Source: an uncultured virus (IMG/VR IMGVR_UViG_2690315780_000001) (taxonomy: Duplodnaviria > Heunggongvirae > Uroviricota > Caudoviricetes). From it: a stretch of DNA of 64,000 nt. The stretch covers positions 1 to 64,000 of the IMG/VR virus record IMGVR_UViG_2690315780_000001, one strand, 5' to 3'. The notes beneath the pieces were generated by a model. It saw only the letters and a list, made by a program, of their open reading frames with translations. It was not told where the DNA came from and did no database searches. The position numbers and the translations under genes were made by a program. Shown here piece after piece: positions 22,398 to 53,250 of the stretch. Within the stretch, counting starts at the first letter, position 1. Each line of letters opens with the position of its first letter.

Positions 22398-22849
22398 AGT
22401 GCTGACTCCGCCTCTCGACGACTGACAAGCCCTCGCCAAACCTTTCCACCCGCATAAACCCAACGTTTTATTTCTTCACAGGCACCCGCTCTATCACCAA
22501 CATTTAGTTTCTTAAGTAATGTTGAGCGAGCAAATGCGGTTGTGCCCACATTAAAAGCAAAGGAATATAAAGCGGCTTTGGTGTAGTCATCGAGTGGTAC
22601 TTTGATTAATGCATCGACTTGCTGTTGTGTCTTAATAAAATCGTTTTGTAATAACGCATCACATTCTTGTTGTGTGTATGTCTTACCTTGAATAATGTCT
22701 TTGCCTGTATGCCCATAACAAACTGTCAAAACACCTGCCACATCACGATAAGGCTCATAACGTACACCTTCAAAATGGGCTATTACTACTAACGCGATGG
22801 CTGTTGCTCCCGCCGTTGTTAGCGCAGCTATTTTCTGTTTGAGAGACAT
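22379..22849 (-). CDS. SAR endolysin (GH24, R21-like)
   Basis: Ala/Gly-rich N-terminal SAR; E-x8-D-x5-T triad (FEGVRYEPYRDVAGVLT). Confidence 0.93.
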   Translation of the reverse strand: MSLKQKIAALTTAGATAIALVVIAHFEGVRYEPYRDVAGVLTVCYGHTGKDIIQGKTYTQQECDALLQNDFIKTQQQVDALIKVPLDDYTKAALYSFAFNVGTTAFARSTLLKKLNVGDRAGACEEIKRWVYAGGKVWRGLVSRREAESALCHGNL

Positions 22850-23118
22850 TAAATATCCTTTGGCGCTTTCACCATTAATTCAGCAAGCCTTTTTAGGGTT
22901 TCAGTTGGGTTTTGTGGGTCAACATGACGAACAAGCTCTTCAAATAATTCAGTGCGTTTTCGTTGCTCTCGACGAGTCATAAAGTAAGTGGCTAAACCCA
23001 GAACCATGCTAAACGCCATACCGATAACAAATCCCCATTCATATAATGAGAGACTGGCAAAAAAGGCCGTTAAGCCTGCGGTTCCGTAAGTAACATTGGT
23101 TAATTTTTCCATACGCAT
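22849..23118 (-). CDS. Holin with a possible dual start (Met-Arg-Met)
   Basis: Hydrophobic segments and basic C-tail; stop overlaps the endolysin start; ATG CGT ATG after GGGGGTG. Confidence 0.8.
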   Translation of the reverse strand: MRMEKLTNVTYGTAGLTAFFASLSLYEWGFVIGMAFSMVLGLATYFMTRREQRKRTELFEELVRHVDPQNPTETLKRLAELMVKAPKDI

Positions 23119-23261
23119 AGTCACCCCCAGAGGAGTGTCCGTTGATGATTAGTGTGAGAAAGTTAAAAGTGATAAAAGAAGACTTAAATTAAACTAATAA
23201 TTTAGATTAATGTAACTAACGATCGTGATAATCAATAGCTTAATCATGATAAGGAGAATAA

Positions 23262-23928: not shown

Positions 23929-24351
23929 TTAAACAGCTTTCGACACATTAAGTGCCTTTAATAAACCTTCAGGCAACTGCTCTTCCAGTGACGCATTAGA
24001 AACAATCACAAGACCGTACATGGATATCCATGTATTCGTTTGTTGTAAGTGCCCTTGAATAAATTGCTTCGCTTTCTCTAACAAATAAACACAACTCTCC
24101 TGTGTGTTTTTGCGCCAATAAGATTCAATCGCCACCAGCAATGGATCACCTGCATCATTAATCTTTTGTGTGCCGATTCGATATTGTTTTTTACCTGCGG
24201 GAGATGTTGTACAAATTAATTGTGTCAGTTGTTGAGTTTCACCATCAGCCGTATGGATATTCGCCGTTAAAATGGCAGAGGTATTCATTTCGCTGTCTGT
24301 TTCTGAGGCGTAGTGAAGACTAAACTGTAATTCACTTATCTCTTTTGACAT
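23929..24351 (-). CDS. Hypothetical protein
   Basis: 140-aa ORF; no recognised motif. Confidence 0.65.
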   Translation of the reverse strand: MSKEISELQFSLHYASETDSEMNTSAILTANIHTADGETQQLTQLICTTSPAGKKQYRIGTQKINDAGDPLLVAIESYWRKNTQESCVYLLEKAKQFIQGHLQQTNTWISMYGLVIVSNASLEEQLPEGLLKALNVSKAV

Positions 24352-24479
24352 AACATTTACCGATTTATTTAGTTAATAAGGTGCCGACTCACAGCTCTTG
24401 TGTGAACGGTATAAGTAGGTGTTGATTCTGTGGTCGGCGTAGACGGAAAGGCTACAAAGTAACCTTATTTAATTTAGGG

Positions 24480-24510
24480 TTGAATACATTAATGAGAATA
24501 ATTATCATTA
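24480..24510 (+). promoter_or_regulatory. Sigma70 promoter overlapped by a Fur box
   Basis: TTGAAT-N17-TATCAT; AATGAGAATAATTATCATT inverted repeat (24491-24509). Confidence 0.8.
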
Positions 24511-24515
24511 CATAT

Positions 24516-24620
24516 GTATCGAATTGACAGGTTTGATACGAATTAGTACGACATGACTTACATTGCTTCTTGCGTTTATTTTATATGCCGATATGACTCC
24601 TAGCGTATCGGCATTTTTTT
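24516..24620 (+). ncRNA. ryhB: RyhB-like iron-responsive small RNA
   Basis: 5' hairpin GTATCGAA..TTTGATAC; core AGTACGACATGACTTACATTGCTTC matches 21/25 nt of E. coli RyhB as recalled; terminator ATGCCGATA..TATCGGCAT plus T run. Confidence 0.8.
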
Positions 24621-24690
24621 ATTGTGTGTTGGGTTATCTTTTCATACTGGTAATTTAGATCCATCTGTTTAGATTCGGTCTAACACAACA

Positions 24691-24909
24691 ATGATTCAAG
24701 TCTATAACTCATTACTTCTCATGACTGTATCTGTTGATATTGATGGTAGCGATACTCTGAATAAAGCTCTGGAAAAGAAGTTCGGAAAGAATGCAAAGAT
24801 CGTGGCTAACCTGTTCACCGATTCTGAAAAGACAAAGCATACCTTCACCTTCCATCTGGGGAAAGGGACCGATTTATTTTCGACGGATGGTAGTCTCCAG
24901 CACGATTGA
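24691..24909 (+). CDS. Hypothetical 72-aa protein or gene remnant
   Basis: ORF only; weak RBS. Confidence 0.3.
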   Translation: MIQVYNSLLLMTVSVDIDGSDTLNKALEKKFGKNAKIVANLFTDSEKTKHTFTFHLGKGTDLFSTDGSLQHD

Positions 24910-25152: not shown

Positions 25153-26190
25153 GTGGAACTAAATGATTTAAAAAAACGACTTCAACAACATCTGGCTGAT
25201 GGCCTAGTTCTAATTATTGGTTCAGGGTTATCTTGTGCAGAAGGGATCCCTGGGATGGGAAAACTCGGGGAGCATCTGCTCTCTCATGTCCCTGATAATC
25301 TTTCTCCTGATGACCTAAAACTATGGAATGAGATCAACCCCTCAATCGGAACTGATGGTTTAGAAGCAGCCTTACTTAAACGAGCCCCGACACCATCCCT
25401 CGAAGCGATCATTGTCAAATCTACTGGGAAATACATTTCAGCAGCCGAAGCCATTATTATCTCGGAAGTGTTTAAAAATGAGAGAACTCTTCGACTTACA
25501 ACGTTACTTCCTCATTTATTAAAACCAGATAAAGGCATACCTATTGTAACAACTAACTATGACCGCTTAGTTGAGCTTGCCTGTGAAGAAGCTGGCTTAG
25601 GAGTTGATACTATGTTCAACGGGCATTTTGCTGCTCGGCTAGAACCTCTTAATAGCCATTGGCTTTTTTGCCGTGGGGCAAAACTTGTTGGTAAGCATGT
25701 GCGATATAAATTCACACCAAAAGTGAACGTTTTCAAACCGCATGGCAGCTTAGACTGGTATCACCGTAAAGGTAACCCTGTGCGATATACCGGAGATCTC
25801 CCTCTTCCTCGTCTAATCATTACACCTGGCTTGAATAAGTTCAGGAGCGGCTACGATAGTCCCTTTGACAAACACAGGGAAAAAGCTAATGATGCAATCG
25901 ATAAAGCCAGCCGGTTCTTGATCATAGGCTATGGATTCAATGATGATCATTTGGAAACACACCTAACCCCTCGTATTCGGTCAGGAGTAAGAACTGTAAT
26001 TTTGACCCGTACACTTTCCGAAAAAGCTAAAGAAATAGCTAAGTTAAACAAGAATGTAATTGCAGCAGAGTTCCATAACGACGCAGGAACTGATGGTACG
26101 CACTTCATCATCGATGGAAATGAAATATTTTACCCTGATATTGATTACTGGGATCTTAAAGGATTCGTAGAAGGAGTTTTATCCGTATGA
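25153..26190 (+). CDS. SIR2-like NADase of a Sir2-HerA anti-phage system
   Basis: IIGSGLS, TTNYD, KPHGSL, IIGYGFNDDH. Confidence 0.92.
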   Translation: MELNDLKKRLQQHLADGLVLIIGSGLSCAEGIPGMGKLGEHLLSHVPDNLSPDDLKLWNEINPSIGTDGLEAALLKRAPTPSLEAIIVKSTGKYISAAEAIIISEVFKNERTLRLTTLLPHLLKPDKGIPIVTTNYDRLVELACEEAGLGVDTMFNGHFAARLEPLNSHWLFCRGAKLVGKHVRYKFTPKVNVFKPHGSLDWYHRKGNPVRYTGDLPLPRLIITPGLNKFRSGYDSPFDKHREKANDAIDKASRFLIIGYGFNDDHLETHLTPRIRSGVRTVILTRTLSEKAKEIAKLNKNVIAAEFHNDAGTDGTHFIIDGNEIFYPDIDYWDLKGFVEGVLSV

Positions 26191-27935
26191 CTAGTCCTGT
26201 TCTTATATTTACAGAAAATGAACAAATAGGCCGTGTAGCTGGGGTAGATACCAGCCGTGTGGCTATTGATGTCACCAACTCCGAAATGCTGACACGTGTT
26301 GGAATTGGGCAGTTAATAGCAATCAAGGGGGCTACACAGGCCGAATTCCTGATTGGAATGACAGATCGAGTAACTCGGTCATTACGAGAAGAATTACCTG
26401 ATCCAGAAGAGGATGAGTCTGGAATGCTAACCATATCACCGTCTGACTATATGCAGGCCTTTGTCATCGGTACTTATAGGACTGTTGATGGAGATAAAAC
26501 TGATATATTCAAACGAGGAGCCGATAGTTTTCCACAGATCGATCGTGAATGCTTTGTGATAGAAGGAGTTAATCTTCAGCGTTTTATGGGCATACTTGGT
26601 GCTGGTTTACCCGACGAAGAACGCCTTAAACTTGGTACTTTCGTGGCAGATCGAAGTGCTGAGGCGATTGCTAGTGGGGATAGATTTTTCCAGAGGCATG
26701 CGGCCATCCTAGGAAGTACTGGTTCCGGTAAGAGTTGGGCTGTTGCTCTAATATTAGAGCGGGCTGCTAAGCTTAAATATCCTAATATTGTCGTCTTCGA
26801 TATGCATGGTGAGTACGCCACACTGGCTGATAAAGCCAAAGGAGGCTATGCACAACGATTCCGCATCGCGGGACCAGGAGACCTTACTGCACCTCAAGAT
26901 GATGCACTATTTCTGCCATATTGGTTACTAAATCGAGATGAAATGTTGTCGATGATTCTTGACCGTAGCGATCAAAATGCACCAAACCAAGCCTCTCGCT
27001 TCACTCTTCATGTTCGGGATCTCAAAGGCAAAACTCTGGATTCATCTGGTAAGCTAAAAGTCAAAGAGACATTTACTGTAGACTCACCAATACCTTACGC
27101 TATTTCTGATTTAGTTGATCGTTTAACTAAGGATAATATAACGAAAGGTATCGGTAAAACTGGACAGCCTGTAAAAGGGGATTGGGAAGACAAACTGACA
27201 CGTTTTCTTTCAAGGCTGGAAGCAAAGCTTGATGATCGCCGATATGGTTTTATGTTTTCACCTCCACCTGAAGCTCTAGATTACGGATGGCTTGCTAAAC
27301 AAATTATAAAACTACTTCGCGCTGATTCTGGTAACGGTATTAAAATTATTGATTTTTCTGAGGTTCCTGCTGATGTCCTGCCAGTAGTGACAGGAACTTT
27401 AGCCCGTCTACTCTATGATATTCAATTCTGGATGAGCGCAGATTCTCGAACGCCAATCACCTTACTTTGTGATGAAGCACATCTTTATCTTCCTGTAAAA
27501 GATGACGCAGATTCAGTTCAAAGGCAGGCACTATGGTCCTTTGAACGCATTGCAAAAGAGGGTCGTAAATATGGTTTCTCATTATTAGTCGTAAGTCAGA
27601 GGCCGTCAGATGTAAGCCGGACTATCCTTTCCCAATGTAACAACTTCTTAGCTCTCAGGTTAACAAATGATAGCGATCAAAATGTCATCAAGAGGTTGGT
27701 ACCTGATTCCCTCACAGGTCTAACCGCTATGCTTCCACTTTTAGATACAGGTGAGGCCTTGTTACTCGGAGACGCAGTTCTTCTACCAACACGTATTAAA
27801 CTTGATCAACCGCAGGTAAAACCTGACAGTGCCACTCGGGATTTCTGGAAAGAATGGGGTTCTCTTAATCCTGATCTAGATTTATTAGAAATGGCTGTTG
27901 AATGTTTAAGAAGCCAATCAAGAATCAATAAATAA
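26187..27935 (+). CDS. herA: HerA-family ATPase of the Sir2-HerA system
   Basis: HAAILGSTGSGKS, FDMHGEY, DEAH, KEGRKYG, SQRPS; ATGA overlap with the SIR2 gene. Confidence 0.93.
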   Translation: MTSPVLIFTENEQIGRVAGVDTSRVAIDVTNSEMLTRVGIGQLIAIKGATQAEFLIGMTDRVTRSLREELPDPEEDESGMLTISPSDYMQAFVIGTYRTVDGDKTDIFKRGADSFPQIDRECFVIEGVNLQRFMGILGAGLPDEERLKLGTFVADRSAEAIASGDRFFQRHAAILGSTGSGKSWAVALILERAAKLKYPNIVVFDMHGEYATLADKAKGGYAQRFRIAGPGDLTAPQDDALFLPYWLLNRDEMLSMILDRSDQNAPNQASRFTLHVRDLKGKTLDSSGKLKVKETFTVDSPIPYAISDLVDRLTKDNITKGIGKTGQPVKGDWEDKLTRFLSRLEAKLDDRRYGFMFSPPPEALDYGWLAKQIIKLLRADSGNGIKIIDFSEVPADVLPVVTGTLARLLYDIQFWMSADSRTPITLLCDEAHLYLPVKDDADSVQRQALWSFERIAKEGRKYGFSLLVVSQRPSDVSRTILSQCNNFLALRLTNDSDQNVIKRLVPDSLTGLTAMLPLLDTGEALLLGDAVLLPTRIKLDQPQVKPDSATRDFWKEWGSLNPDLDLLEMAVECLRSQSRINK

Positions 27936-28239: not shown

Positions 28240-28698
28240 TTAGCTTTTATCTTTATTCTCTATCGCTATTGTTTGCCGTTTTTCTTCTTCTGGCAACTCA
28301 TACTCAATAGCAATAGTCAGAAGTCCACTTGATAAATCGGCTTTTTCTATTTTAACATTTTTACCGAGGTCAAATTGCAACGTAAATTGTCCTTGAGATA
28401 TGCCTCGGTGGATCCATTTATCATTGTCTTCTTCTGATTTTTCTTCTTTTTTCCCTTCAATCAATAAACGACTTCCTTTTAATGAAACCGATAAGTCATC
28501 TTCTTGATATCCAGGCACACTTACTGTCAGTTCATAATGGTTATCATCAATCTGTTTCAGGTTATAAGTCTGTACAGGTGATGCAATTGGCTTACTGCCT
28601 GTTAACTGACTAAACAGGCGATCTATCTGATCAAAACGATTTGAAAGTAAGTTGTCAGATAATGTTGGGAATAATGAAAAAGGTTTAATGTTAGGCAT
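28240..28698 (-). CDS. Hsp20/IbpA-like small heat-shock protein
   Basis: YNLKQIDDNHYELTVSVPG; WIHRGI; ADLSSGLLTI. Confidence 0.9.
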   Translation of the reverse strand: MPNIKPFSLFPTLSDNLLSNRFDQIDRLFSQLTGSKPIASPVQTYNLKQIDDNHYELTVSVPGYQEDDLSVSLKGSRLLIEGKKEEKSEEDNDKWIHRGISQGQFTLQFDLGKNVKIEKADLSSGLLTIAIEYELPEEEKRQTIAIENKDKS

Positions 28699-28758
28699 AT
28701 AACTCCTCCTTCAGTATTTAGTGAATTATGGGCGGTATCTTATTTACCCAAAATATAA

Positions 28759-28784
28759 ATATGAACGAGCAAGTATTTTTCAAG
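28759..28784 (-). promoter_or_regulatory. Possible sigma32 promoter of hsp20
   Basis: CTTGAA as -35, followed by an imperfect -10 (TTCATAT). Confidence 0.4.
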
Positions 28785-28834
28785 CCCTAAAATCTAAATT
28801 TTTTATCTTTAACCAATATGAGATTGTAGATAGC

Positions 28835-28860
28835 AAAAAACCCCGCCGAAGCGAGGTTTT
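28835..28860 (-). terminator. Terminator of the csp-ymcF unit
   Basis: AACCTCGC ttcg GCGGGGTT followed by a U-tract on the minus strand. Confidence 0.8.
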
Positions 28861-28881
28861 ATATATTCAACTATTTAATGC

Positions 28882-29022
28882 TTAACTCATTTGAGCTGTC
28901 ATCACACTTTTGCAAAAGATACATTTTGCGCCGTGTGGATTGTTCACTGTGACATCAAATTGTGATGTTCTATATTGTGAACCGCTACAACTTGGGCATT
29001 TAAAATAGAGGCGAATAGTAAT
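28882..29022 (-). CDS. ymcF: YmcF/YnfQ-like cold-shock small protein with ATT start (not in the ORF track)
   Basis: (M)TIRLYFKCPSCSGSQYRTSQFDVTVNNPHGAKCIFCKSVMTAQMS*; two CxxC motifs; starts 7 nt after the csp stop; no N-terminal ATG. Confidence 0.85.
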   Translation of the reverse strand: MTIRLYFKCPSCSGSQYRTSQFDVTVNNPHGAKCIFCKSVMTAQMS

Positions 29023-29029
29023 AGCGCCT

Positions 29030-29242
29030 TTAGAGAGCCACCACGTTGCCTGCTGCGGGGCCTTTCATACCATTTTCCATGGTGAATGAAACTTGTTGGC
29101 CTTCAGCTAATGTTTTGAAGCTATCACTTTGGATTGCAGAGAAATGTACAAAGACATCTTTGCTACCATCAGCTGGAGTAATAAAACCAAAACCTTTACC
29201 TTCATCGAACCATTTTACTGTACCAGTCATTGTATTAGACAT
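29030..29242 (-). CDS. csp: CspA-family cold-shock protein
   Basis: [21 protein letters not shown]. Confidence 0.97.
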
Positions 29243-29561
29243 AGAATTTCCTTTAATTTATTTAATTTGCCATAAGGCATATGCGGTTTGTTTTGTATTT
29301 TTACTTATGGGAATTAATTAGAAGGAATTCACAATGAAGAGGTATCGAGGATAACGCTAAACGGGAACAACTTTAAACTTACTAACATAAATAGGTCTGT
29401 ACTTCCAAACCAGTGACGCTATTAAGCCATAGAAAAATGCAGATAGCAAACTTTATTTTTTAGCGGTAAGTCAGCTTAAGTAGACCTATAAAAAACACAA
29501 CCCCGTTATACTCACGAGGTTTTTAATTGATAAGAGGTGTAACATCAAAACCATTATTAAC

Positions 29562-29590
29562 ACAATATATTGTGTTTTGTAATTACGCAA
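29562..29590 (-). promoter_or_regulatory. Late promoter pR' (with tR'-like hairpin at about 29498-29524)
   Basis: TTGCGT-N17-TATTGT at the end of Q; downstream AACCTCGT..ACGGGGTT hairpin. Confidence 0.65.
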
Positions 29591-29981
29591 GACTGTAAAT
29601 GTGGTGTTTTCTAATTATTTTATCCATATCTAATTTTACGTTATCAACCGATAAACACCCTTCAATAAATCCTTCCGCTGTCTGTAATCGCTTAGCCACT
29701 TCATTATGCGAAATGCCAAGTTTTGAAGCCATTGAACGCAAAGGATAATTTTTCACATAGTACATAATAACTAACTGAAACAAGTAACTATTATTTACCT
29801 TTAAATGTAATACCGCTTTATTGATTTTTAAGCCATCATCATCTGAACACTGCTCTCGGCTTCGTCTTGAGCTTGGAATTAATCCTTTAAAACCTGCGGC
29901 AATTGATGAGTAATCGATACTATTTCCCTCATTAGCTGACCACGCTCCCCAACGTGATAAAACTTCCTGCATATCTCTCAT
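29583..29981 (-). CDS. Q: Late antiterminator Q
   Basis: MRDMQEVLSRWGAW; CSDDDG; LQTAEGFIEG. Confidence 0.9.
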   Translation of the reverse strand: MRDMQEVLSRWGAWSANEGNSIDYSSIAAGFKGLIPSSRRSREQCSDDDGLKINKAVLHLKVNNSYLFQLVIMYYVKNYPLRSMASKLGISHNEVAKRLQTAEGFIEGCLSVDNVKLDMDKIIRKHHIYSLA

Positions 29982-38427: not shown

Positions 38428-39993
38428 ATGACGCATATTTTGAAGGCAAAAATCAAAAATTTTAAGAAATTCCGAGAGTATGAGATTCATTTTGACCCTA
38501 AAAGAAACATTCTGGTTGGCGATAATGAAGCAGGAAAGAGCACTATATTGATGGCTATTGAACTTGTGTTGAGTGGCAGTAGAAGCAAGGTAGATAACTT
38601 GGGTATTGAAGCTTTGCTTAATGCCAGTGTTGTTTCAGAATTTCTAGCAGGTGAGAAGAATATAGATCGCCTTCCTAGTCTTCATATTGAATTATTTCTA
38701 AACGAAGCAGATAACCCAGACCTCAATGGTAGAAACAATAGTGATGGAACTTATGCTGACGGGCTTCAATTGATCTGTGAACCAAACGAAGAGTTAAGCA
38801 CGGAGATACGGCAAGTTTTGGATACTGAAGGTGATAATTTTCCATTCGAATTTTACGTTGCCAAGTTTATTACATTCAATGGGGAACTATACTCCAGTTA
38901 TCGGAAGTTTTTGCGCTATTTATCTATTGATAGCACTCAAATTAACAACGAGTATGCAAACAGTAAGTATGTAAAAGCTATGTATGAAGCGACTGTGGAG
39001 CAATCTCTCCGTTACAGTCTAATGAATGAATATAGACAGCAAAAAAATGCCTTCAGGAATACTCAACTAAATGTGATTAATGATGATTTAGAAGGGTTCG
39101 ATTTTGCTATCCGCTCTGGCTCAAAGTTCAATTTGGAAACTGATCTAACTCTAACAGAGGAAGGTATTCCTATTGAAAATCGTGGTAAAGGAAGGCAGTG
39201 CTTTATAAAAACTGCGTTTGCATTAAGAGAGCGTGATGAAGGTAAGAGAATCGATGTTTTGTTACTAGAAGAACCTGAGAATCACCTTAGCCACACCAAC
39301 ATGTATAAGCTAATTAGTCAGGTAGAGAAGGCTCATGATAATCAGGTGATAATTGCAACTCATAGTAGTCTAATTAGTTCTAGATTAGATTTAAGAAAGT
39401 CGATCTTACTGAATAGCGCAACAACCAGACCAGCTACCTTGACAGACCTCACGAGGGATACCGCTAAGTTTTTTGCGAAAGCCCCTAACCATAACATCTT
39501 AGAACATGTCCTTTCTGAAAAAGTAATTCTTGTTGAGGGTGATGCGGAATATATTTTGATGGAATGCTTATACGAGAGAACTAAAGGTCATCAACCAAGC
39601 GAGGATGGAGTTCATATAATCTCAGTTGGTGGTATTAGCTTTAAACGATATATGGAAGTTTCTAAATTGTTGAATATTAGAACGGCAGTGATCCGTGATA
39701 ATGACGGTGACTATCAAAAAAACTGTATAGATAATTATCATGATTATCAGGCAGATTGTATAACTGTGTACGCTGATACAGATAATACAAGAACAACTTT
39801 TGAAATATGCATGTATCAAGATAATAAAGAAATCTGTGACGACTTATTTTCAGGCAGAGGGATCCAATTAACACCGCAACAGTATATGTTGAAGAACAAA
39901 ACTACCGTAGCATTTAGATTACTTGACGAGAAGGCGAATGAAATCACTGTACCTACATACATTAGAGAGGCCATTGAATGGATAAGCGAGTAG
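38428..39993 (+). CDS. gajA: OLD-family ATPase/TOPRIM nuclease, Gabija GajA
   Basis: GDNEAGKS, LLEEPENHLS, ATHS, LVEGDAE, RDNDGD. Confidence 0.85.
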   Translation: MTHILKAKIKNFKKFREYEIHFDPKRNILVGDNEAGKSTILMAIELVLSGSRSKVDNLGIEALLNASVVSEFLAGEKNIDRLPSLHIELFLNEADNPDLNGRNNSDGTYADGLQLICEPNEELSTEIRQVLDTEGDNFPFEFYVAKFITFNGELYSSYRKFLRYLSIDSTQINNEYANSKYVKAMYEATVEQSLRYSLMNEYRQQKNAFRNTQLNVINDDLEGFDFAIRSGSKFNLETDLTLTEEGIPIENRGKGRQCFIKTAFALRERDEGKRIDVLLLEEPENHLSHTNMYKLISQVEKAHDNQVIIATHSSLISSRLDLRKSILLNSATTRPATLTDLTRDTAKFFAKAPNHNILEHVLSEKVILVEGDAEYILMECLYERTKGHQPSEDGVHIISVGGISFKRYMEVSKLLNIRTAVIRDNDGDYQKNCIDNYHDYQADCITVYADTDNTRTTFEICMYQDNKEICDDLFSGRGIQLTPQQYMLKNKTTVAFRLLDEKANEITVPTYIREAIEWISE

Positions 39994-41000
39994 TACTAGC
40001 AGTTGCAGGAGCAGGAAAAACACAACATATAATTGATAAATTAGACATAAATAGTCGTGCGCTAATTGTTACTTACACTGTAAATAATACTACTAATCTG
40101 AAGAAACGTATTTTAAACAAATTTGGAGTAATTCCTAAAGGTATTCGTGTTTACACCTATTTTTCATTCCTAATATCGTTTTGCGTGCGACCAATCATTG
40201 GTAACGACATGAAGATAAAGGGGATTAGCTATAGTGATCCGCCTAAATTTGCGAAACGCAACACTCATGCACATTACGTCAGTCAAGGAGACCGACTTTA
40301 CCATAACCGTATTTCGAAGATGATGATGGATTGTAATGGTGTATCTGACATCTCCAAGCGTATTGAAAAGTATTTTGATTTCTTCTGCGTAGATGAAGTT
40401 CAAGATTTCGCAGCTAATGATTTCAATTTGCTTTGTCAATTGTCGAAAACGGATGTTGAGATATTATTCGTTGGTGACTTCTTCCAACATACTTTTGATA
40501 CTAGCCGAGATGGCAATATTCAAAAAAACCTACATAACCACTACGAAGCATACCTTACTAAGCTCAAAGATGCCGGATACACAATCGACTTAGATACGCT
40601 CTCCCACAGTTATAGATGTAGCCCTACAGTTTGCAGATTTGTTACCGAACAAATTGGCATCATAATAAGTTCCCATCGACAAGATGAGGTCAATATTGCC
40701 TTAATTGAAAATACTGAACATATTAAGAGGTTATTCTCCAATGATTCCATCGTTAAATTATTTTTTAAAGAAAGCTACAAGTACGTTGGAAGGACTGACA
40801 ATTGGGGAAATACAAAAGGCTTGGATGATTTCGCTGACATCTGTATAGTTCTAAATCCGACCACATTCGCTGCCTATACAAAAGGACAATTGGCTACTTT
40901 GTCACCATCGACGTTAAATAAGCTATACGTAGCTTGTACAAGAGCTAAAGGTAATGTGTATTTTGTCTCACAACGTTTGTTAGACGAGTACAAATGTTAA
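39978..41000 (+). CDS. gajB: Compact UvrD-like helicase, Gabija GajB
   Basis: AVAGAGKT, DEVQD, GDFFQ, SYRC, KGL, YVACTRA; overlaps gajA. Confidence 0.85.
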   Translation: MDKRVVLAVAGAGKTQHIIDKLDINSRALIVTYTVNNTTNLKKRILNKFGVIPKGIRVYTYFSFLISFCVRPIIGNDMKIKGISYSDPPKFAKRNTHAHYVSQGDRLYHNRISKMMMDCNGVSDISKRIEKYFDFFCVDEVQDFAANDFNLLCQLSKTDVEILFVGDFFQHTFDTSRDGNIQKNLHNHYEAYLTKLKDAGYTIDLDTLSHSYRCSPTVCRFVTEQIGIIISSHRQDEVNIALIENTEHIKRLFSNDSIVKLFFKESYKYVGRTDNWGNTKGLDDFADICIVLNPTTFAAYTKGQLATLSPSTLNKLYVACTRAKGNVYFVSQRLLDEYKC

Positions 41001-42577: not shown

Positions 42578-43783
42578 ATGAATATTAAAAGTGTACAGTT
42601 TTTGGACTTGTTTGATAAGTTAAATTACAACTTGGATTTTTCTAATTTTGATACAAATATACTAACAGGTCCTAATGGTTATGGAAAAACCATTATTCTA
42701 AAATCTATAAATAGCCTTATTAATCGTGATTTGCCTTTCTTTGAAAAATTACGTTTCAAAGAGTTTAGAATAATATTTGATTCTATTGATATAACACTAA
42801 AAAAGGATGAACATTTACAAATAAAAATAACGCAAGGAGATATTACCGATATACTAATATTTGAGAAAAACCTCACAGATATTAAATTATCAGACAACAC
42901 TATTGTGACAGAAATGGAAATAAAATGGAGTAAAATGAAAGCAATATCTGCTTCACGAGATGCAGTTATTGAAAAATTAGGAAAATATTTATCAGGCTGT
43001 ACTGTATTATTTATAAAAGATCAAAGAATGCAAGTCTATATAGATAAAAAAAACGAAATAACATTAATTTCTTTGGCTAGAGATTTAAAAGAAAAAATAA
43101 ATTTTGCAATAGAAGAATATAACAGATTATCACAAGAATTAGATGCTACTTTCCCAATTAGACTATTTGATTATGAAGCGAGACCAAGTTATATAATGAT
43201 AGAAGAAAAACTAAAGGGATTAAAGTTAGTTAGATATGATTATATAAAATTTGGATTTCTTGATGAATCCACTAACACTAAATTTGAAATGCAAGATATG
43301 GACTTATCAAAAAAATATGATAATGCACATGTTCTAGAATTATATCTATCTGATAGTTTAGATAAATATTCTGCATTTAAAGATTTAACGAAGAAAATAA
43401 ATCTATTTATTCGTTTTTTAAATAGTAAAGAATTAGCATTCAAATCACTTGTTGTACATAAAGATGTAGGGTTTTGCTTAATTGATAATGATACTGGAAA
43501 ATCAATAGAATTAAATAGCCTCTCATCAGGAGAACAAAATCAAATAATTATGCTCTATAACTTGATTTTCTTGACAAATAAAAACTCTATTTTATTGATA
43601 GATGAACCTGAAATATCATTACATATCGCTTGGCAAAAAGAAGTATTAAATAATTTAGAAAGAATTATGAAAGTTAATAATATTCCACAGACGATTATAG
43701 CTACACATTCACCTACAGTTATTAATGGAAACTGGGATAGAAGTTTAGATCTATATGAATTAAGTAAGCAAGGAAATAACTAA
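42578..43783 (+). CDS. ariA: ABC/AAA ATPase, PARIS AriA-like
   Basis: GPNGYGKT, LSSGEQ, IDEPEISLHIAWQ, ATHSP. Confidence 0.8.
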   Translation: MNIKSVQFLDLFDKLNYNLDFSNFDTNILTGPNGYGKTIILKSINSLINRDLPFFEKLRFKEFRIIFDSIDITLKKDEHLQIKITQGDITDILIFEKNLTDIKLSDNTIVTEMEIKWSKMKAISASRDAVIEKLGKYLSGCTVLFIKDQRMQVYIDKKNEITLISLARDLKEKINFAIEEYNRLSQELDATFPIRLFDYEARPSYIMIEEKLKGLKLVRYDYIKFGFLDESTNTKFEMQDMDLSKKYDNAHVLELYLSDSLDKYSAFKDLTKKINLFIRFLNSKELAFKSLVVHKDVGFCLIDNDTGKSIELNSLSSGEQNQIIMLYNLIFLTNKNSILLIDEPEISLHIAWQKEVLNNLERIMKVNNIPQTIIATHSPTVINGNWDRSLDLYELSKQGNN

Positions 43784-43784
43784 C

Positions 43785-44678
43785 ATGCGTTCATTACAAC
43801 AAGAAAGTAGTGAGCTATCATGGGTAGATAAAAATAGACTCATATTTAACCATGCTTCAACAGAAAATAAAATAGTTTTGCTTGTAGAAGGAGATAGTGA
43901 TCGACGTTTCTTTTATAAAATATTTAAATGTTATAGTGAACAAATATTAATTGAATCCCCTGACTCTGGAAAACCCGAAGTTATAAATGCAGTTAATAAA
44001 ATTCGCTCTTTAGAACACAAAAATATTTATGGAATCTGTGATACTGACTTTGATTATATAACAGGTAAGATAGACAATTACGATAGAAATATAATTTTAT
44101 TTACAGATTTTCATGACTTAGAGGTAACATTGCTAACTTTAGATATATTTGATGATATTTATACGGAATATACTATATTTGATATACTGACTCCCAATGA
44201 TGCTAACAGTTTAAAGGAAAATATATTTAATATTTCTTATGATATAGGATTGCTAAAACTAGCCAATGAAAAAGAAAATTTTAATTTAAACTTTAAATCA
44301 TTAGTTCACAATAAATATATTTCTGCTGATGGTATTAATTTAACATTGGACATAGATTTCTTAATCGATGACTTAATATCAAAAAGTCCAAGATTTAATA
44401 ATGAGATATATTCAAAAATGTATATTTTAGAAAAATACTCATTATTGAAGATCGCTGGCTATGATAAACATCACATATGCAACGGTCATGATTTTTGCGA
44501 AATACTATCACTATGTTATAGACAAGATTTTTCAAAAGACAAAAATCTTAATAGGAATAAAATAGAAAGTGACCTTCGATTAACTTGCACAGACACTAGA
44601 TTTTCAAAAAGTAATTTATATAACTTACTGAAAAATATTCTTTCTAAACATAATATTGATGTGTCTACTCTACCTTAA
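43785..44678 (+). CDS. ariB: DUF4435/TOPRIM protein, PARIS AriB-like
   Basis: LVEGDSD, GICDTDFD, HDLE, CNGHD; 1 nt after the ATPase gene. Confidence 0.8.
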   Translation: MRSLQQESSELSWVDKNRLIFNHASTENKIVLLVEGDSDRRFFYKIFKCYSEQILIESPDSGKPEVINAVNKIRSLEHKNIYGICDTDFDYITGKIDNYDRNIILFTDFHDLEVTLLTLDIFDDIYTEYTIFDILTPNDANSLKENIFNISYDIGLLKLANEKENFNLNFKSLVHNKYISADGINLTLDIDFLIDDLISKSPRFNNEIYSKMYILEKYSLLKIAGYDKHHICNGHDFCEILSLCYRQDFSKDKNLNRNKIESDLRLTCTDTRFSKSNLYNLLKNILSKHNIDVSTLP

Positions 44679-46046: not shown

Positions 46047-46502
46047 ATGAATATTTTTGTAAGCTATACAACTAGAGACGACAATATTGATAGAAAATTA
46101 TTAGAGCGTATATCTGAGATTATTTCACTTTATGGTCATTGCTACATCGATCTATTACATAATACCGAAAAAAATAAGCAACGACATGTCGAATTTATGC
46201 TATCACAATCTAATTGTGTAATTTTAATAGCATCAAGTTCAATATTTATTTCAAAATGGGTTCAATGGGAGCTTAATGAAGCTAAAAAACGTTGCATTCC
46301 AATTATTATAGTTGAAGCCAAGTCAGACATAACTAATACTTTAAAAAATTTGAAATCAAAATTAGCAACTAATGCTTATTTACTTTCTAAATTAGAAAAT
46401 AAAAAATTGCAATCTCATCAAAAAATATCAGATTTTTATTTGGAATCGACATCTAATAAATTAACAATGATAAAAAATACGTGTTTTTTATTAGTTAAAT
46501 AA
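46047..46502 (+). CDS. TIR-domain protein (ThsB-like)
   Basis: MNIFVSY; SNCVILIAS; SKWVQWEL with the catalytic Glu; IPIIIV. Confidence 0.85.
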   Translation: MNIFVSYTTRDDNIDRKLLERISEIISLYGHCYIDLLHNTEKNKQRHVEFMLSQSNCVILIASSSIFISKWVQWELNEAKKRCIPIIIVEAKSDITNTLKNLKSKLATNAYLLSKLENKKLQSHQKISDFYLESTSNKLTMIKNTCFLLVK

Positions 46503-46579: not shown

Positions 46580-47269
46580 CTACAACCCCCTATTTATATT
46601 CCCTACATCAACCACCAAACAGGTTGCGGGAAATCGGGATATCTCTTCTCCTACAACGTTTGTTGCCCATTTAATGCTTTCTTTATATCGAATTTGGAGC
46701 ACATTTCCTTCTCTTCGAATAAAAGTTTCCATCAAAGCACCTTCAAAACCATCTTCACAAATTCCGGCCATACCTCCACCAAAAACAAAGGCTAAATCCT
46801 TTATATTAGGTAATGGATAATCCATATTCTCTTTTTGTGAAACAATAAAATAATTAACTATTTTTAATATTCCCCAGTTTGAATTATAAACGGTCTTTTT
46901 CGTTTTGCTGTTTTTTACAACCAATCCATATTTTTCATTAAAAATATTATTTGGCTGCTCACCAAACTCATAAATATCAACAACGCCCGGTGAATCATAG
47001 CAAGGTTGTGATATATAAACCGCTTTCATCTCGTTATTTATAATTCTTGAGGTGATCCGAATAAATGCATGTTTAGGTGATATTGCTAATAATTTTGTAT
47101 TGGGATGAGGAGGTATTTTAAACTCTTGGCTATATCCTTCATTATTTGATGTTATCCCACCAGCCATCCTTATGGTTCTTTTATCAAGACAGCACATCAC
47201 TTGGTTATGGCTATCGATCTGAACTTGCCTATTTTCACCGCGGATGATTATTCCATATTTACTTTTCAT
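46580..47269 (-). CDS. Tail tip-associated protein (DUF6453-like)
   Basis: KYGIII and KYGLVV repeats; lies after J. Confidence 0.6.
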   Translation of the reverse strand: MKSKYGIIIRGENRQVQIDSHNQVMCCLDKRTIRMAGGITSNNEGYSQEFKIPPHPNTKLLAISPKHAFIRITSRIINNEMKAVYISQPCYDSPGVVDIYEFGEQPNNIFNEKYGLVVKNSKTKKTVYNSNWGILKIVNYFIVSQKENMDYPLPNIKDLAFVFGGGMAGICEDGFEGALMETFIRREGNVLQIRYKESIKWATNVVGEEISRFPATCLVVDVGNINRGL

Positions 47270-47600
47270 TAATAAACACCATAGTAGAGTTTTATAATAT
47301 CTTCATATTCACCATCAACTCCATTGGTATACATATTTTTTAATTCAAGTTTAATGATCCCATTATTTATCTCTAATTTAATATCTCCTGCCAATCCCAT
47401 TAAAAATGCCGAGCCAAACCAAGCGAAAACCTTGCCATATTTATTTAAATCTTGATGATCGAAAATATACTCTTTTTGAGTATTTAGTGGGATGGGTTTT
47501 ATATCATGATACCCGACTATTCTTCCTACTCTGTCTGAGGTGTTTAATAAATCCATATCATATAATGTAGACCTAACCAGTACGCCATATTTACTCTTCA
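47269..47600 (-). CDS. Small tail tip-associated protein
   Basis: MKSKYGVLV start overlapping the end of J. Confidence 0.6.
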
Positions 47601-50600
47601 TTGCTGATATCACCAATAATAACAACGTTATTTCCAAACTCATCTTTGACATATAAATTTTGTTCTGTGAGGGAAGTCCCCCCATTACCGCCATAAAATT
47701 CTAATTTATTATTTTTTACGTCAATAATAAAACCTGACTCGTCGGGATAATAATTATCGGAAGTAATGGCTTCTGATAAGACTAATTTTCTGATCATGGC
47801 TTTATCAATTAATGCATCTCGAATAAAAAACTGTCCATTTTTTGCTGACATAAACAGTTCCATTCGATTATTTTTAGGATTATAAAAGGCAAAGTTATTG
47901 GCATTAAATCCAATATAGGAGGTGATCTTTTTATTTTTAATTTCAGCGCTCACCACAAGGCCACCGGCATTATATTTAATATTATCTTGGATAATGGTAA
48001 TGTTCATTGAATGCCTCGCATATCCGCCTGATTGTGTAAATTGCGCATTCATCTTTCGGCTAACAATACCTGACTGCTGATTAAACTTGGCTTGAACCTG
48101 TTGTTGATAAGTTGATTGGGCTTGTGTTATTGAGGAAATGGCTTCTTTTTGGGTAATAATATCCGCTTCCGTATTTTCTATTTGAGTTCGGATATCTTTA
48201 ATATCTGTTTCAATCTGTTCACTGTATTTTTCAAACTTTCGAGATAAGCGGTATTCATTGTAACGCAGTCTTTTAACGGTGGTTTCATTCCAATCGACAG
48301 TTTCACTCAGTGTTTTCCATGCTTGGGTTTCTTGTAATTCTTTATCTAAGTTATCTAATATCTCTCTGGTGTAGCTTTCTGGTTGCCCTATTCCTTCCAC
48401 AAATTCTGAACGCCCAACAGCGTTTATACTGCGAACATAAATATAATAGGTATGCCCTGCTTTTAGGTTTCTACCTTGAATAACCCACATCGTACTGACA
48501 CCTAAATATTCAGTGCGACTTTCCACTTCGCGAATATCGGTGATCTGTTTTTCTGAAACCCAAAACTCATACTGTGCTCGTAAGCTATTTTGACCACCAG
48601 AACGCGGAATAATACCCAAGCTAAAATAACCTGATTCCACTTCAATGTAACTCGGTGGCAATGGCGGGTTAATCGCGAATGAAGTTGTGACCACCTCGCC
48701 TTTTTGTTTCCGATCATTTTGAGGCACGACGGATAAAACATAATTGCCCTGAGGCAAACCACCAAAACGATGCATTGTATCCGTGGTTGAGGCAGTACCG
48801 ACAATGCGATCACCCGTAGTGAGTTTTAATAAAAAGTCGACCCCTCGACTGGAATAAGGCGTGTTCCAGCTGGCTTCTACTTGCCACGCACTCGTATCCG
48901 ATTCGATATCCACAGAAAGGTTTTCAACTGGTGGAATAAATCCACCCAGTGGCGTATCGGGCTTTGGCTCAAATTTAGCACCCTTATCAACAATCGCCTC
49001 TTTTTCGGGTGTGTGTTGTACTGCGATAACCGTAAAACTACCATCTCCGTTATCAGCCAAGCTGATAGCGCGAAATAATCGGCGACGTAAAGACGGGAGT
49101 GTCAACGTCCAAATTCCGCCCTCGCGTAACCCTAACGGTAAGGTATCCAGATTTATTTGATTGGATGCGGGATAATTCAGCACTTCATAAGATTGCGGAT
49201 CACCTTGTGCATTGATGAGCGTAACGCTGGATTTACCGCTTTTGGGTGTGTCGATATTGCGATCTAAGGTTAATGTTTGAGAGGCATAATCAATGTGTGT
49301 CAGACGCCCACCAATTTGATTATCCGCGTAATAGTTATCGGCAATTTCGATAATATCACCCGGCATATGACGCAAGCCTTCACTGCCAACAGTAAACTCA
49401 ACCGTCTGTGTCTCTAATTTCTCAGTGGTTAATAACCAAAGACCATGACGATGGGCTTGCCCTCTGCTAGTACAACCAAAAGCATCGACGCGCATCACAT
49501 TACGACCAAAGCGGGCAATGCTGGCATCATCTTCAACCAGTTCAACACTGGTTTTCCAGCCATTATCGGGATCAATAAAACGAACTTCGACAGCAGTATG
49601 ACGCGATTTTAATGCACTAAAACTATATTGAAAGTTACCATCAATCACATTGGCGTTGGTATATGGCCACACCACATCAGACGGCCTATCTTGAATAAAG
49701 GTTAATGTTCGCCCGTTCCAGACTGGCATAATGCGCATCATGGCACACATATCGCCCATCACATCATAGGCTTTGCGCATATCCGTAATGTAGGCATTGC
49801 ACGTCATACGGGGTTCTTTTCCACCGAACCCATCATCAACCTGTTCATCACAATAACGACCGATTGCATACAGGGCGAATTTATCGACTTCTCTAATATT
49901 AAGGCGTTTCCCCATGCCATAACGCGGGTGAGTTAATAAATCCCATAATATCCATGCAGGATTATTGGTAAATGCCGGTTTAAAGGTGCCATCCCAAATC
50001 CCTGTATAAATCCGTTTATCTGGATCATAATTACTCGGCACCTGAATAATGCGACCTTTAATTAAATAATTACGGCGAGGAAATTTATTACCAAACTGCT
50101 CACTATCAAACATTAATCCAGCAACAGCAGACCCCGGATAAGTTTGTGAAATATCCACTAACTCAGAATAGCTCGACCAAACGGTATTATTTTGAATTTT
50201 GTCAGAAGTGCTGTCTTGAGTGATACGGATCATGCGTACACTAAACGGAACGGGCGGTAAATCATCCAACACAACGGCCATCAAATAAGGTGAGTTAGAG
50301 CGTTTGCCATTAATCGTGACATTTTTCTCTGTTATCCATGCCCCATTGCGCTGAATTTGGATTTGCAATTGAACAGAAGTGGGTACACGATCACCATTAT
50401 CTTTAGTTTCAACCAGAGCTTGTGTCCCAAAGGTTAGGCGTAAACGGTCAATATTGGGTGAGGTAATAGTACGAGTGACGGGGGAATTATATTTAACTTC
50501 GATACCCACCGGCACTTCATTCGCAGACGCGGTAAAGCCACTCATTGCCGGTTGTTCTAATGTCCCTGCCCGCCATTGTGCATACATTCCATTAATGGTG

Positions 50601-50794
50601 CTATTGCCAGAGCCGTCTATCACAGGCGTATCATCCAAATAAATACACCCTAAATCATCCATCGAGCCTTGAATATGAATAGGGCCTTCAATCGGTCCCT
50701 CACTGATTAAATCAATTAATGAGGCTTTTTGTCGTGATGTTAAATCATTTGGTGCCTCATACGGTGTTCTTTGACCGCCACCACCTTTACCCAT
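47591..50794 (-). CDS. J: Lambda-type tail tip protein J
   Basis: MGKGGG..TPYEAPN; DLISEGPIEG; WDGTFKPAFTNNPAW. Confidence 0.95.
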   Translation of the reverse strand: MGKGGGGQRTPYEAPNDLTSRQKASLIDLISEGPIEGPIHIQGSMDDLGCIYLDDTPVIDGSGNSTINGMYAQWRAGTLEQPAMSGFTASANEVPVGIEVKYNSPVTRTITSPNIDRLRLTFGTQALVETKDNGDRVPTSVQLQIQIQRNGAWITEKNVTINGKRSNSPYLMAVVLDDLPPVPFSVRMIRITQDSTSDKIQNNTVWSSYSELVDISQTYPGSAVAGLMFDSEQFGNKFPRRNYLIKGRIIQVPSNYDPDKRIYTGIWDGTFKPAFTNNPAWILWDLLTHPRYGMGKRLNIREVDKFALYAIGRYCDEQVDDGFGGKEPRMTCNAYITDMRKAYDVMGDMCAMMRIMPVWNGRTLTFIQDRPSDVVWPYTNANVIDGNFQYSFSALKSRHTAVEVRFIDPDNGWKTSVELVEDDASIARFGRNVMRVDAFGCTSRGQAHRHGLWLLTTEKLETQTVEFTVGSEGLRHMPGDIIEIADNYYADNQIGGRLTHIDYASQTLTLDRNIDTPKSGKSSVTLINAQGDPQSYEVLNYPASNQINLDTLPLGLREGGIWTLTLPSLRRRLFRAISLADNGDGSFTVIAVQHTPEKEAIVDKGAKFEPKPDTPLGGFIPPVENLSVDIESDTSAWQVEASWNTPYSSRGVDFLLKLTTGDRIVGTASTTDTMHRFGGLPQGNYVLSVVPQNDRKQKGEVVTTSFAINPPLPPSYIEVESGYFSLGIIPRSGGQNSLRAQYEFWVSEKQITDIREVESRTEYLGVSTMWVIQGRNLKAGHTYYIYVRSINAVGRSEFVEGIGQPESYTREILDNLDKELQETQAWKTLSETVDWNETTVKRLRYNEYRLSRKFEKYSEQIETDIKDIRTQIENTEADIITQKEAISSITQAQSTYQQQVQAKFNQQSGIVSRKMNAQFTQSGGYARHSMNITIIQDNIKYNAGGLVVSAEIKNKKITSYIGFNANNFAFYNPKNNRMELFMSAKNGQFFIRDALIDKAMIRKLVLSEAITSDNYYPDESGFIIDVKNNKLEFYGGNGGTSLTEQNLYVKDEFGNNVVIIGDISNEE

Positions 50795-50808
50795 AATACA
50801 AGCTCCTC

Positions 50809-51447
50809 TTAACCACCGTGTTTGCCGGCATCGATATCTTCGCCATCACTGTCATCCATAATTTCAACGGATTGTGAAATGACGCGTGAACCACACATAA
50901 TTTCGCCATACGCAATGGGCACCGGCATCCCTTGAGCAACCGCGTTATCAAGATTACTAAAATAGGTATTGCCTTTTTCTTCATCATCACGAGATAAATT
51001 AGGGGGTTTAGGTGCGGGGATCAGCATTTGAGCGACACCACCAATCATCATGGCAGCACCACCCGCCATCAAAGAAGTCGCCACTGTTGCGGAGATCCAC
51101 GCAGGCCCCCACCATCCCAATGAAAATAAAGCAGCACCCGCAACAAACTGAAAAACGCCGACGTTTTTAGCCCCTGATAATTTCGGCACAATATGGACGA
51201 TCGCGTTATCAGGTAAGGTTTCATTGAATTTTTGGTGAACTTCTTGCGGGGAAATATCGGTACCGGCAATACGCACTTGATACCAACCCTCACGAATGGC
51301 AAGGCGTAATGCTGGGATTTGAATAAAAAGCGCGTGAAGCCCTTCAGAGGCGGTATTCACATTTAAATCAAAGCGACGTCCAAATCGTTGCAAATTCCCG
51401 TAAAGTCGGAAGGTTGCCAATCGCGGTAACGCCAGATCGAGTGCGTC
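50809..51447 (-). CDS. I: Tail assembly protein I
   Basis: RLYGNLQRFGRR; QGMPVPIAYGE..GSRVIS. Confidence 0.9.
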   Translation of the reverse strand, partial: DALDLALPRLATFRLYGNLQRFGRRFDLNVNTASEGLHALFIQIPALRLAIREGWYQVRIAGTDISPQEVHQKFNETLPDNAIVHIVPKLSGAKNVGVFQFVAGAALFSLGWWGPAWISATVATSLMAGGAAMMIGGVAQMLIPAPKPPNLSRDDEEKGNTYFSNLDNAVAQGMPVPIAYGEIMCGSRVISQSVEIMDDSDGEDIDAGKHGG

Positions 51448-52091
51448 ATTCGTTGCCATCGTTCGTTATACTCCTCGCGTTTACTGAGTTGGTTTGGAAT
51501 GTGATGCAAAATCGTTTGGTTGCCTAAATAAATCCCCGCATGGTTGGCGCGAGAGCTGGCATAGCAACACAAAATAATATCGCCGGGTTGTGCCTCTTTT
51601 TTTATCTGTCGAAAACCACTGCTCACCATATTGTCGAGGTACAACTCTTTACTTTGTCGCCACCAATTATCATGTCGCTCAAAATCAGGCAGATCATGTC
51701 CTGCCAAATGATAAGCGTCTCGAAACAACCCATAACAATCTGTTGAGCCATGAACAAATTGGCGACCCAATAGATGAGGAACAGGTTGATAGCAGTGAAT
51801 TTTTTCATCATAAACCACCCACCACGGCAATGCGCTGTTCACCTGCAGTTGTCTATCTAATGTGCTGAGGTACTGTTGGCCTTCAGGATGACTGTGTACA
51901 ACCGCGATCACTTCGCCCTGCTGTTCGGCGCGAATAAAATCATCAAAAGAAATCGTGAAGTGGTTTTTCGGATCGGTATGCTGGTTAACACAAGGTAAAT
52001 ACTGTTCGCCATGAGCAGTACTTATCAATAAGCCACACGCCTCCAAGGGCGCTTGCTCTTTTGCCTGCGCCAATATTGCTTGTTCAATCAT
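51363..52091 (-). CDS. K: Tail assembly protein K (JAB plus NlpC/P60)
   Basis: EACGL, HSHP, DCYGL, NHAGIY. Confidence 0.92.
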   Translation of the reverse strand: MIEQAILAQAKEQAPLEACGLLISTAHGEQYLPCVNQHTDPKNHFTISFDDFIRAEQQGEVIAVVHSHPEGQQYLSTLDRQLQVNSALPWWVVYDEKIHCYQPVPHLLGRQFVHGSTDCYGLFRDAYHLAGHDLPDFERHDNWWRQSKELYLDNMVSSGFRQIKKEAQPGDIILCCYASSRANHAGIYLGNQTILHHIPNQLSKREEYNERWQRMTHSIWRYRDWQPSDFTGICNDLDVALI

Positions 52092-52112
52092 AAGAAACAC
52101 CTTAGGAGGGAA

Positions 52113-52817: not shown

Positions 52818-53018
52818 ATTAGCTCCAATAAAAAACCCGCCGAAGCGGGTCAAGGTTACAATATTTTTTATATTATGAATAATAGTTTAGGTATGATGAA
52901 GATAATATTCATATTTAAATAAATTATGAATTAATATCTTTCATATAAGAAAATAAATGAATTTAGATTAAAGTATTAATATTTTGATTATATTTTAATT
53001 GAATAATTAGGATTGTAA

Positions 53019-53249
53019 TTATTTTATTCTTCGTCTATCGACTGATTGTAATACACTGAATTTTCTTGCTTGTATAATATTTTCACTTTCTTTTTTATCT
53101 TCATTTTTTAAATATATAAGTTTTCCTGAGTCTTTACTTTTCAACCATCTACCATTTAAATCTATAGCGACTTCAGCATATAATGTATCTGAGTTGAGGA
53201 GTTTTTTATAGGAAAGTCCTGTATATGCCCATAATTCGGTTCTGTTCAT
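53019..53249 (-). CDS. Hypothetical 76-aa moron protein
   Basis: GAGG RBS; 1 nt after the upstream stop. Confidence 0.6.
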   Translation of the reverse strand: MNRTELWAYTGLSYKKLLNSDTLYAEVAIDLNGRWLKSKDSGKLIYLKNEDKKESENIIQARKFSVLQSVDRRRIK

Positions 53250-53250
53250 C

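Follow-up and report, generated by a model that had tools for sequence, protein, structure and literature searches.

A predicted RyhB-like small RNA gene with an altered seed is widespread cargo of Proteus prophages

Introduction

The closest described relatives of the gene analysed here are RyhB and its island-borne Salmonella paralogue IsrE (RyhB-2), both of which have a Fur box over the promoter, a 5' hairpin, a two-repeat core, a U-rich stretch and a terminator; the IsrE report indicates that a horizontally acquired ryhB paralogue can be non-redundant (PMC2330248). Other relevant systems are small RNAs (sRNAs) of mobile elements. In EHEC lambdoid prophages, convergent sRNA genes are described at a moron site downstream of a Q-antiterminated promoter, and the EcOnc/anti-sRNAs AgvB and AsxR, 51-60 nt sponges of host sRNAs, combine a shared 3' part with an exchangeable pairing part (PMC4104026). 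Esr41 (EcOnc14), of the EHEC island SpLE1, is reported to repress cirA, chuA and bfr, its targets overlapping those of RyhB with a different outcome (PMC5286369). Prophage RNAs that limit other phages have also been reported: svsR of E. coli NC-SV, which works via host transport genes, and STnc6030 of Salmonella BTP1 and aQ of lambda, which are cis-antisense to their own phage (PMC12803456, PMC12197685). As these reports describe them, none is a trans-acting, iron-controlled RNA aimed at the Q gene of another phage.

Here we describe a predicted sRNA gene within a 64,000-nt stretch of an IMG/VR virus record (hereafter the window, meaning the whole stretch analysed). It shares the RyhB layout, but differs from RyhB in being temperate-phage cargo in a late-gene slot, with a changed first repeat and 3' extension, a covariance score of 30 bits compared with 57-82 bits for the Proteus chromosomal copies, and a predicted loss of iscS, sodA and frdA as targets. 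Like AgvB and AsxR it occupies a convergent slot and joins a shared 3' part to an exchangeable pairing part; unlike these sponges, as described, it has a predicted length of about 107 nt and a putative Fur box, derives from RyhB and is predicted to pair at the starts of mRNAs. Esr41 likewise belongs to a mobile element, but is described as repressing iron-receptor mRNAs, whereas receptor starts rank poorly in predictions for the phage RNA. A literature search covering few subscription papers returned no phage-encoded RyhB homologue and no report of the Proteus RNA, which sRNA lists in supplements could hold.

Architecture of the phage RNA gene

The gene and its control region comprise the following features.

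24480-24508, plus strand: predicted sigma-70-type promoter (-35 element TTGAAT at 24480-24485, 17-nt spacer, -10 element TATCAT at 24503-24508)
24488-24512, no strand assigned: putative Fur box, two overlapping 15/19 consensus matches around a palindrome at 24491-24509, over the -10 element
24514-24620, plus strand: predicted sRNA gene of about 107 nt, its start placed from the -10 element
24516-24539, plus strand: 5' hairpin of the RyhB-like RNA, from folding and sequence
24545-24569, plus strand: core of the RNA, matching the Rfam RyhB consensus at 21/25 positions
24545-24574, plus strand: RyhB-like pairing region, the core plus a 3' extension
24575-24620, plus strand: U-rich stretch and intrinsic terminator (stem 24585-24614, then seven T to 24620)

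A preliminary description of this DNA had proposed a TTGAAT-N17-TATCAT promoter overlapped by an inverted repeat, and behind it a 5' hairpin, a core resembling that of RyhB at 21/25 positions and an intrinsic terminator. The promoter is present at 24480-24508, the inverted repeat lies at 24491-24509 with 8/9 arm bases matching, each transcript element sits where it had been placed, and the likeness of the core is borne out by alignment to the Rfam RyhB consensus. The unit had also been called free of open reading frames; it does contain a 16-codon frame (24553-24603), which lacks a ribosome-binding site. Likewise, substitutions had been placed in the pairing region, and the first repeat is indeed altered (at 24555, 24556 and 24559, with the second repeat intact), but changes extend 3' of the core first considered, into the extension, which differs from host RyhB at 24570-24574.

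Taken alone, the promoter (9/12 matches) does not rise above chance, with four such sites in the window compared with 10.6 in shuffled sequence. The two Fur-consensus matches (starts 24488 and 24494) represent two of only six positions reaching at least 15/19 in the 64-kb window, the 11-pair terminator stem is the strongest of five in the window (1.4 expected), and the predicted fold of the RNA has a z-score of -2.96. At the level of sequence, the combination of terminator, Fur matches, fold and Rfam match (see below) exceeds chance, unlike the promoter alone. Both promoter hexamers are 90-100% conserved over 45 aligned copies and share the register of the chromosomal ryhB copies; the putative Fur box is also conserved among aligned copies, at the same position as in chromosomal ryhB. 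The U-rich stretch and terminator would form the usual Hfq-binding module, and we infer Fur repression, transcription in the lysogen and use of Hfq. Eight of 24 listed public RNA runs were inspected; these offered contigs only, each extending upstream of the promoter or beyond the terminator, so that start, end and strand are unreadable, and several of the eight clearly contain DNA.

A separate conserved hairpin was observed just upstream of the promoter (24375-24450; arms at about 24383-24394 and 24427-24438). It occurs in 21/21 genomes of the genus Proteus, often in multiple copies without a RyhB-like gene, and has no credible Rfam match.

Relation to the RyhB family and origin

The cmsearch with the Rfam RyhB model (RF00057) that had been suggested as a check returned a match over the whole model (1-67; 30.1 bits, E 0.0012), with a score 25 bits under the family's gathering cut-off of 55 bits. 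Absence of a significant covariance-model hit had been named as a refuting condition, and the outcome is divided, in that there is a hit but one too weak for the family threshold. A default Rfam scan therefore misses the phage RNA, and such a scan of the window gave a cspA leader as its sole match. By comparison, canonical ryhB copies on Proteus chromosomes score 57-82 bits, at three to four per chromosome in 5/5 hosts tested (L051-L069). Members of the family also carry two ACAUUGCU repeats in the core, of which the phage RNA has the first altered at three places and the second intact. Since it falls short in both score and core, we file the phage RNA as a RyhB-derived variant. At the sequence level it agrees with the family in having a Fur box that overlaps the promoter, and its layout, with a 5' hairpin, a seed left single-stranded, a U-rich stretch and an intrinsic terminator, also conforms. 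The ryhB architecture proposed earlier is thus supported in Fur-box position and in layout, and the gene is RyhB-like in build and likely also in control. Rfam models of other mobile-element sRNAs gave no match, whether for AgvB or AsxR within 24300-24800 or for Esr41 (RF02676) at the RNA gene, and the length of about 107 nt lies outside the 51-60 nt of AgvB and AsxR.

One chromosomal ryhB paralogue (L061-L065) has the same terminator-loop 10-mer as the phage gene and agrees with it where the core ends and where the promoter begins. On the strength of these shared segments, we regard this paralogue as the probable donor or recombination partner, and the most likely origin of the phage gene is a chromosomal copy of this type, either captured or recombined with.

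Several further ryhB arrangements were observed. Canonical ryhB was found in 12 viral contigs (L608-L619) and is there mostly host flank, 10 of the 12 loci being within 350 nt of the contig end. This is as if those prophages inserted beside ryhB, which may have offered a way to capture it. In three genomes (G002, G003 and G004), two ryhB paralogues are found at 16-25 kb from the Q gene of the contractile-tailed prophage considered below, as is one, at 20 kb, in G318. Another RyhB variant, in Citrobacter braakii (L233:1824-1894; 42.2 bits, one first-repeat change), has a tyrosine recombinase on one side and a siderophore receptor of the IreA family on the other, and is likely on a mobile element.

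Predicted targets and proposed mode of action

RyhB targets include iscS, sodA and acnB. Published accounts add sodB and sdhC (PMC8544716) and fumarate reductase (PMC7157518). We screened 2260 called ORF starts, from 2.32 Mb or 59% of Proteus genome G318, with a simple score of duplex energy over 75 nt around each start, to which accessibility was added for the 450 top-scoring starts of each RNA; the ranking depends on our own start calls, and G318 ORFs are often broken (acnB 157 aa, iscS 94 aa). As a control, host RyhB places many iron proteins near the top, among them iscS, narG, fixX, hcp, norW, rimO and a Dyp peroxidase; the method is coarse, as even host RyhB puts sodB and sdhC, both known targets, no higher than ranks 52-631 of 2260. 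A class I fumarase gene was not found in G318.

The predicted targets of the phage allele diverge from those of the host copies. Of its top 50, nine and eight also appear in the top 50 of two host copies, between which the overlap is 25, in line with the earlier suggestion that the altered seed may recognise different mRNAs. Predicted pairing drops for iscS (phage -12.1, host -21.7 kcal/mol), sodA (-9.3 and -19.3) and frdA (-12.7 and -18.2), and is weaker by about 1-3 kcal/mol for sodB (-13.8 and -17.2) and sdhC (-17.7 and -20.4). Predicted sites in acnB, fdhF and cysE are instead kept or improved (acnB -27.3 for the phage allele, -19.7 for the host), and aceF strengthens from -16.9 to -25.6 kcal/mol. 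The acnB site is present in 21/21 and the aceF site in 20/21 genus genomes, as is often the case for start regions of core genes. In most of the top predicted duplexes the changed first repeat lies over the start codon, and the second repeat with the new extension over the ribosome-binding site.

We consider the probable mechanism to be that an RNA under Fur control represses translation of a shifted set of targets. At low iron, Fur would leave the promoter and the RNA of about 107 nt would be made from the prophage; its changed first repeat would pair over a start codon followed by UC, and the intact second repeat with the new 3' extension would pair over the ribosome-binding site 15-25 nt upstream. 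The RNA would thereby block translation of a target set unlike that of host RyhB, with iscS, sodA and frdA dropped, acnB, fdhF and cysE kept or improved, and aceF and the Q-like gene of a rival phage (see below) added.

Alternatively, the gene may be a redundant, extra iron-sparing RyhB in which the second repeat suffices and the changes are neutral. The intact second repeat, the sites in acnB, fdhF, cysE, sdhD, narG and fdnG that still score, and the precedent of IsrE as a horizontally acquired paralogue in Salmonella, as reported (PMC2330248), are all consistent with redundancy. We nevertheless consider it unlikely, given that 5-10 kcal/mol of predicted pairing is lost with each of iscS, sodA and frdA, that hosts have three to four canonical copies, and that the commonest second-repeat substitution, found in L562, L570, G238, G316 and deletion alleles, would break pairing with targets having C there, such as acnB. 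The same observations bear on the preliminary reading of the gene as the phage's own iron-sparing regulator: with predicted pairing lost for iscS, sodA and frdA and weaker for sodB and sdhC, in hosts already supplied with canonical copies, that reading is not supported in the form first given, and an iron-sparing role is only partly supported by these models.

Other candidate targets were less favoured. A receptor-blocking role like that of Esr41 was dropped, as starts of TonB-dependent receptors rank poorly, none of the 13 tested (of 14 found) placing better than 336 of 2260. The second-ranked raw match, an OapA-like gene (1990541), was set aside because its start appears to have been called too far upstream and the diverged G238 allele loses the site. 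Within the phage's own genome, once the antisense strand is left aside, no site goes beyond -24.4 kcal/mol, and the starts of its own Q, holin and lysozyme genes score -10 to -17 kcal/mol (own Q -15.0).

Position among late genes and phage cargo

The window is a virus record containing a lambdoid prophage with integrase, repressor, Q, lysis and head-tail genes. Three of its genes define the setting of the RNA gene.

29583-29981, minus strand: the phage's own Q antiterminator (Pfam PF06530, phrog_79)
23929-24351, minus strand: conserved ORF phrog_2473, before the holin
22849-23124, minus strand: holin, which with phrog_2473 opens the lysis cassette

The phage's own Q gene, on the minus strand, sets the late transcript on that strand. 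The plus-strand RNA gene is thus antisense to the late region, in the Q-to-lysis slot, between a SIR2-HerA pair and the conserved phrog_2473 ORF that precedes the holin; this antisense position between Q and lysis genes is the one that characterises sRNAs of PR' moron sites. The earlier proposal of phage cargo antisense to the late transcript is upheld by both the slot and the orientation of Q. The setting recurs among 51 loci with the RNA gene, with a holin within 6 kb in 46/51 and hsp20 in 38/51, while the cargo beside the RNA gene differs from locus to locus.

The same position admits an action in cis, whereby transcription of the RNA, or the perfect duplex that it would form with late mRNA, reduces Q-to-lysis read-through at low iron. 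The RNA gene is always antisense and just upstream of the lysis cassette, and three different cores occur in one cassette (see below), as expected if transcription outweighs sequence. A duplex, however, could form without any conserved RyhB-like seed, whereas no part of the gene is more conserved than the seed, and EHEC sRNAs in the same slot are described as acting in trans (PMC4104026). We therefore regard cis action as quite unlikely.

The surrounding sequence carries other accessory genes. SIR2-HerA defence genes occupy the cargo slot adjoining the RNA gene (25153-27935), the content of which differs in nearly every related phage, and further defence genes comprise Gabija (GajA, GajB; 38428-41000), an AriA/AriB-like pair (42578-44678) and a TIR protein (46047-46502). 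Stress morons, an Hsp20 gene and a cspA gene, lie between Q and the cargo slot (28240-29414), the latter with its thermoregulator leader complete (231.7 bits). At 46580-64000, genes for tail, head and lysis occur a second time and apparently represent another, partly broken prophage.

Distribution, conservation and alleles

The exact core was found in 43 IMG/VR viral loci and in seven loci of five named Proteus genomes. One P. mirabilis record carries a 98% copy of the RNA gene at a site bearing no annotation. Among 301 sampled genomes of the wider family, full matches were confined to two Proteus genomes, the remainder being Fur boxes, and an annotated phage collection gave eight weak matches, none exceeding the size of a Fur box. 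The features first noted are real, and the predicted RNA gene is widespread and conserved phage cargo.

Conservation of the gene bears on whether it is a silent or decaying hitch-hiker of the lysis cassette. Degraded copies do exist, including one without the promoter (L005), one with an eroded Fur box (G238), and 3/47 with part of the seed deleted. Across 42 distinct loci, however, positions 24537-24620 are 98-100% identical, compared with 44-68% for the right flank and 71-90% for the neighbouring coding ORF; of these 84 bases, 24 were the search pattern and the other 60 were not, and the 50 nt 3' of the pattern are themselves 98-100% conserved. As copies are 96% alike, part of this conservation may reflect recent spread. 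Both hairpins also keep pairing, with 93% of alignment cells paired in the 5' hairpin (6/10 pairs vary on one side and one on both), 99% in the terminator stem (one compensatory pair) and 96% in the two together, where two cells have a double change and covariation is thin. Further, a full copy of the RNA gene is kept in 15/21 Proteus genus genomes while adjoining cargo turns over. We accordingly judge a passive hitch-hiker very unlikely.

Seed and cores were also surveyed by a scan of viral loci anchored on the terminator, and thus blind to the seed. It recovered 64 loci, all preceded by a Fur-box-like sequence, comprising 47 with the core described above (type 1), 16 with a second core (type 2) and one with a third, such that the same promoter-terminator cassette carries two other cores besides type 1. 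Among the 47 type-1 loci, the seed is unchanged in 41, has one substitution in three and deletions in three. Judged by sequence, the changed seed is itself conserved, and the phage gene is hence no spare copy.

Type 2 represents a second Fur-boxed sRNA candidate, with the same terminator and prophage slot and a different core (examples include L269:5774-5945, L270, L547, L550, L554, L576 and G318:C1:3175489). No Rfam family reaches its cut-off on the type-2 core, the best predicted target of which is the fdnG/fdoG start, and some phages carry types 1 and 2 at a distance of 2 kb. In the third core (L558) the first RyhB repeat is canonical and the second is changed; this core is predicted to keep iscS (-16.7 kcal/mol).

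Two further readings were considered. The RNA could be a competitor for Hfq or a sponge for another sRNA rather than an mRNA regulator, as its U-rich stretch and terminator would allow and as the anti-sRNAs AgvB and AsxR, described from the same slot in EHEC (PMC4104026), illustrate; but it has the same sense as host RyhB and so cannot pair with the RyhB seed, its best non-self sites over 2.28 Mb fall in coding genes, at gene starts or opposite ryhB, and competition for Hfq leaves the conservation of the seed unexplained, making this highly improbable. That the RNA is instead the mRNA of a 16-residue peptide (24553-24603), its start codon made by one seed change, is barely credible: the frame exists, and the title of one paper claims a peptide for E. 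coli ryhB, but the frame has no ribosome-binding site, loses its start codon in G238 and the deletion alleles, and shows no third-position pattern of variation in the alignment.

A Q-like antiterminator gene as predicted target

Returning to regulation of a shifted set of mRNAs, the best predicted site among the 2260 starts is in a Q-like antiterminator gene (phrog_943; -21.0 kcal/mol with accessibility) belonging to a second prophage, one with a tail sheath. The predicted duplex has 24 pairs and covers -24 to +5 of the gene. None of nine shuffled sequences reaches this score (best -17.2 kcal/mol), although 2/35 random variants of the RyhB scaffold do, and in the host RyhB rankings this site likewise takes first and fifth place. 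When every position of 2.28 Mb is considered, the score is equalled at four other sites, two of which the G238 allele also keeps.

The diverged G238 allele, examined after the Q site had been chosen, has three core changes and retains the site at -30.6 kcal/mol raw and -19.6 with accessibility (21 pairs, one bulge), leading its next target (-13.8) by 5.8 kcal/mol. Retention as good as this was seen for only 85/2300 transition triples (p about 0.04) and, with random triples, for 2.0% of 5000. When 12 top targets were put to the same test, Q alone fell below 0.12; in two of 20 random variants, the G238 changes left the top target in place. Other natural alleles weaken the predicted pairing, type-2 and type-3 cores are not predicted to pair with the Q site (-12 to -19 kcal/mol), and nothing in the G238 assembly matches the Q region.

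The exact Q site was found in 33 viral loci and, over 22 distinct copies, varies at 2/30 columns compared with 62/295 nearby, where some constraint is expected as two reading frames overlap at the site. Pairing with Q homologues of at most 85% identity is predicted to be at least 7 kcal/mol worse. The RNA gene is present in each of the seven genus genomes that have this Q gene (p = 0.055, a value that ignores prophage load), and no copy of the RNA gene lies within 1.5-2.5 kb of Q in the Q-bearing phage loci. Together, these models raise the possibility, which we hold to be doubtful, that a captured host iron-starvation RNA has been re-aimed at a rival, such that at low iron the RNA would lie over the start codon and ribosome-binding site of Q in a co-resident contractile-tailed prophage and hence block its late and lysis genes.

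Biological significance

The RNA gene is common in prophages of Proteus, a genus living in iron-poor urine, and is missed both by ORF-based annotation and by Rfam scans at default settings. Little has been described of phages controlling how their host responds to iron, or controlling rivals through an iron signal. Should the Q target prove true, it would constitute a new form of phage-against-phage control by a domesticated host regulator, and the cassette of Fur-controlled promoter and terminator with exchangeable cores would represent an iron-triggered RNA platform retuned by phages. The locus also offers a natural experiment in sRNA evolution, with one chassis, three cores, several seed alleles and three to four unchanged host copies, an arrangement that makes the gain and loss of sRNA targets directly testable.
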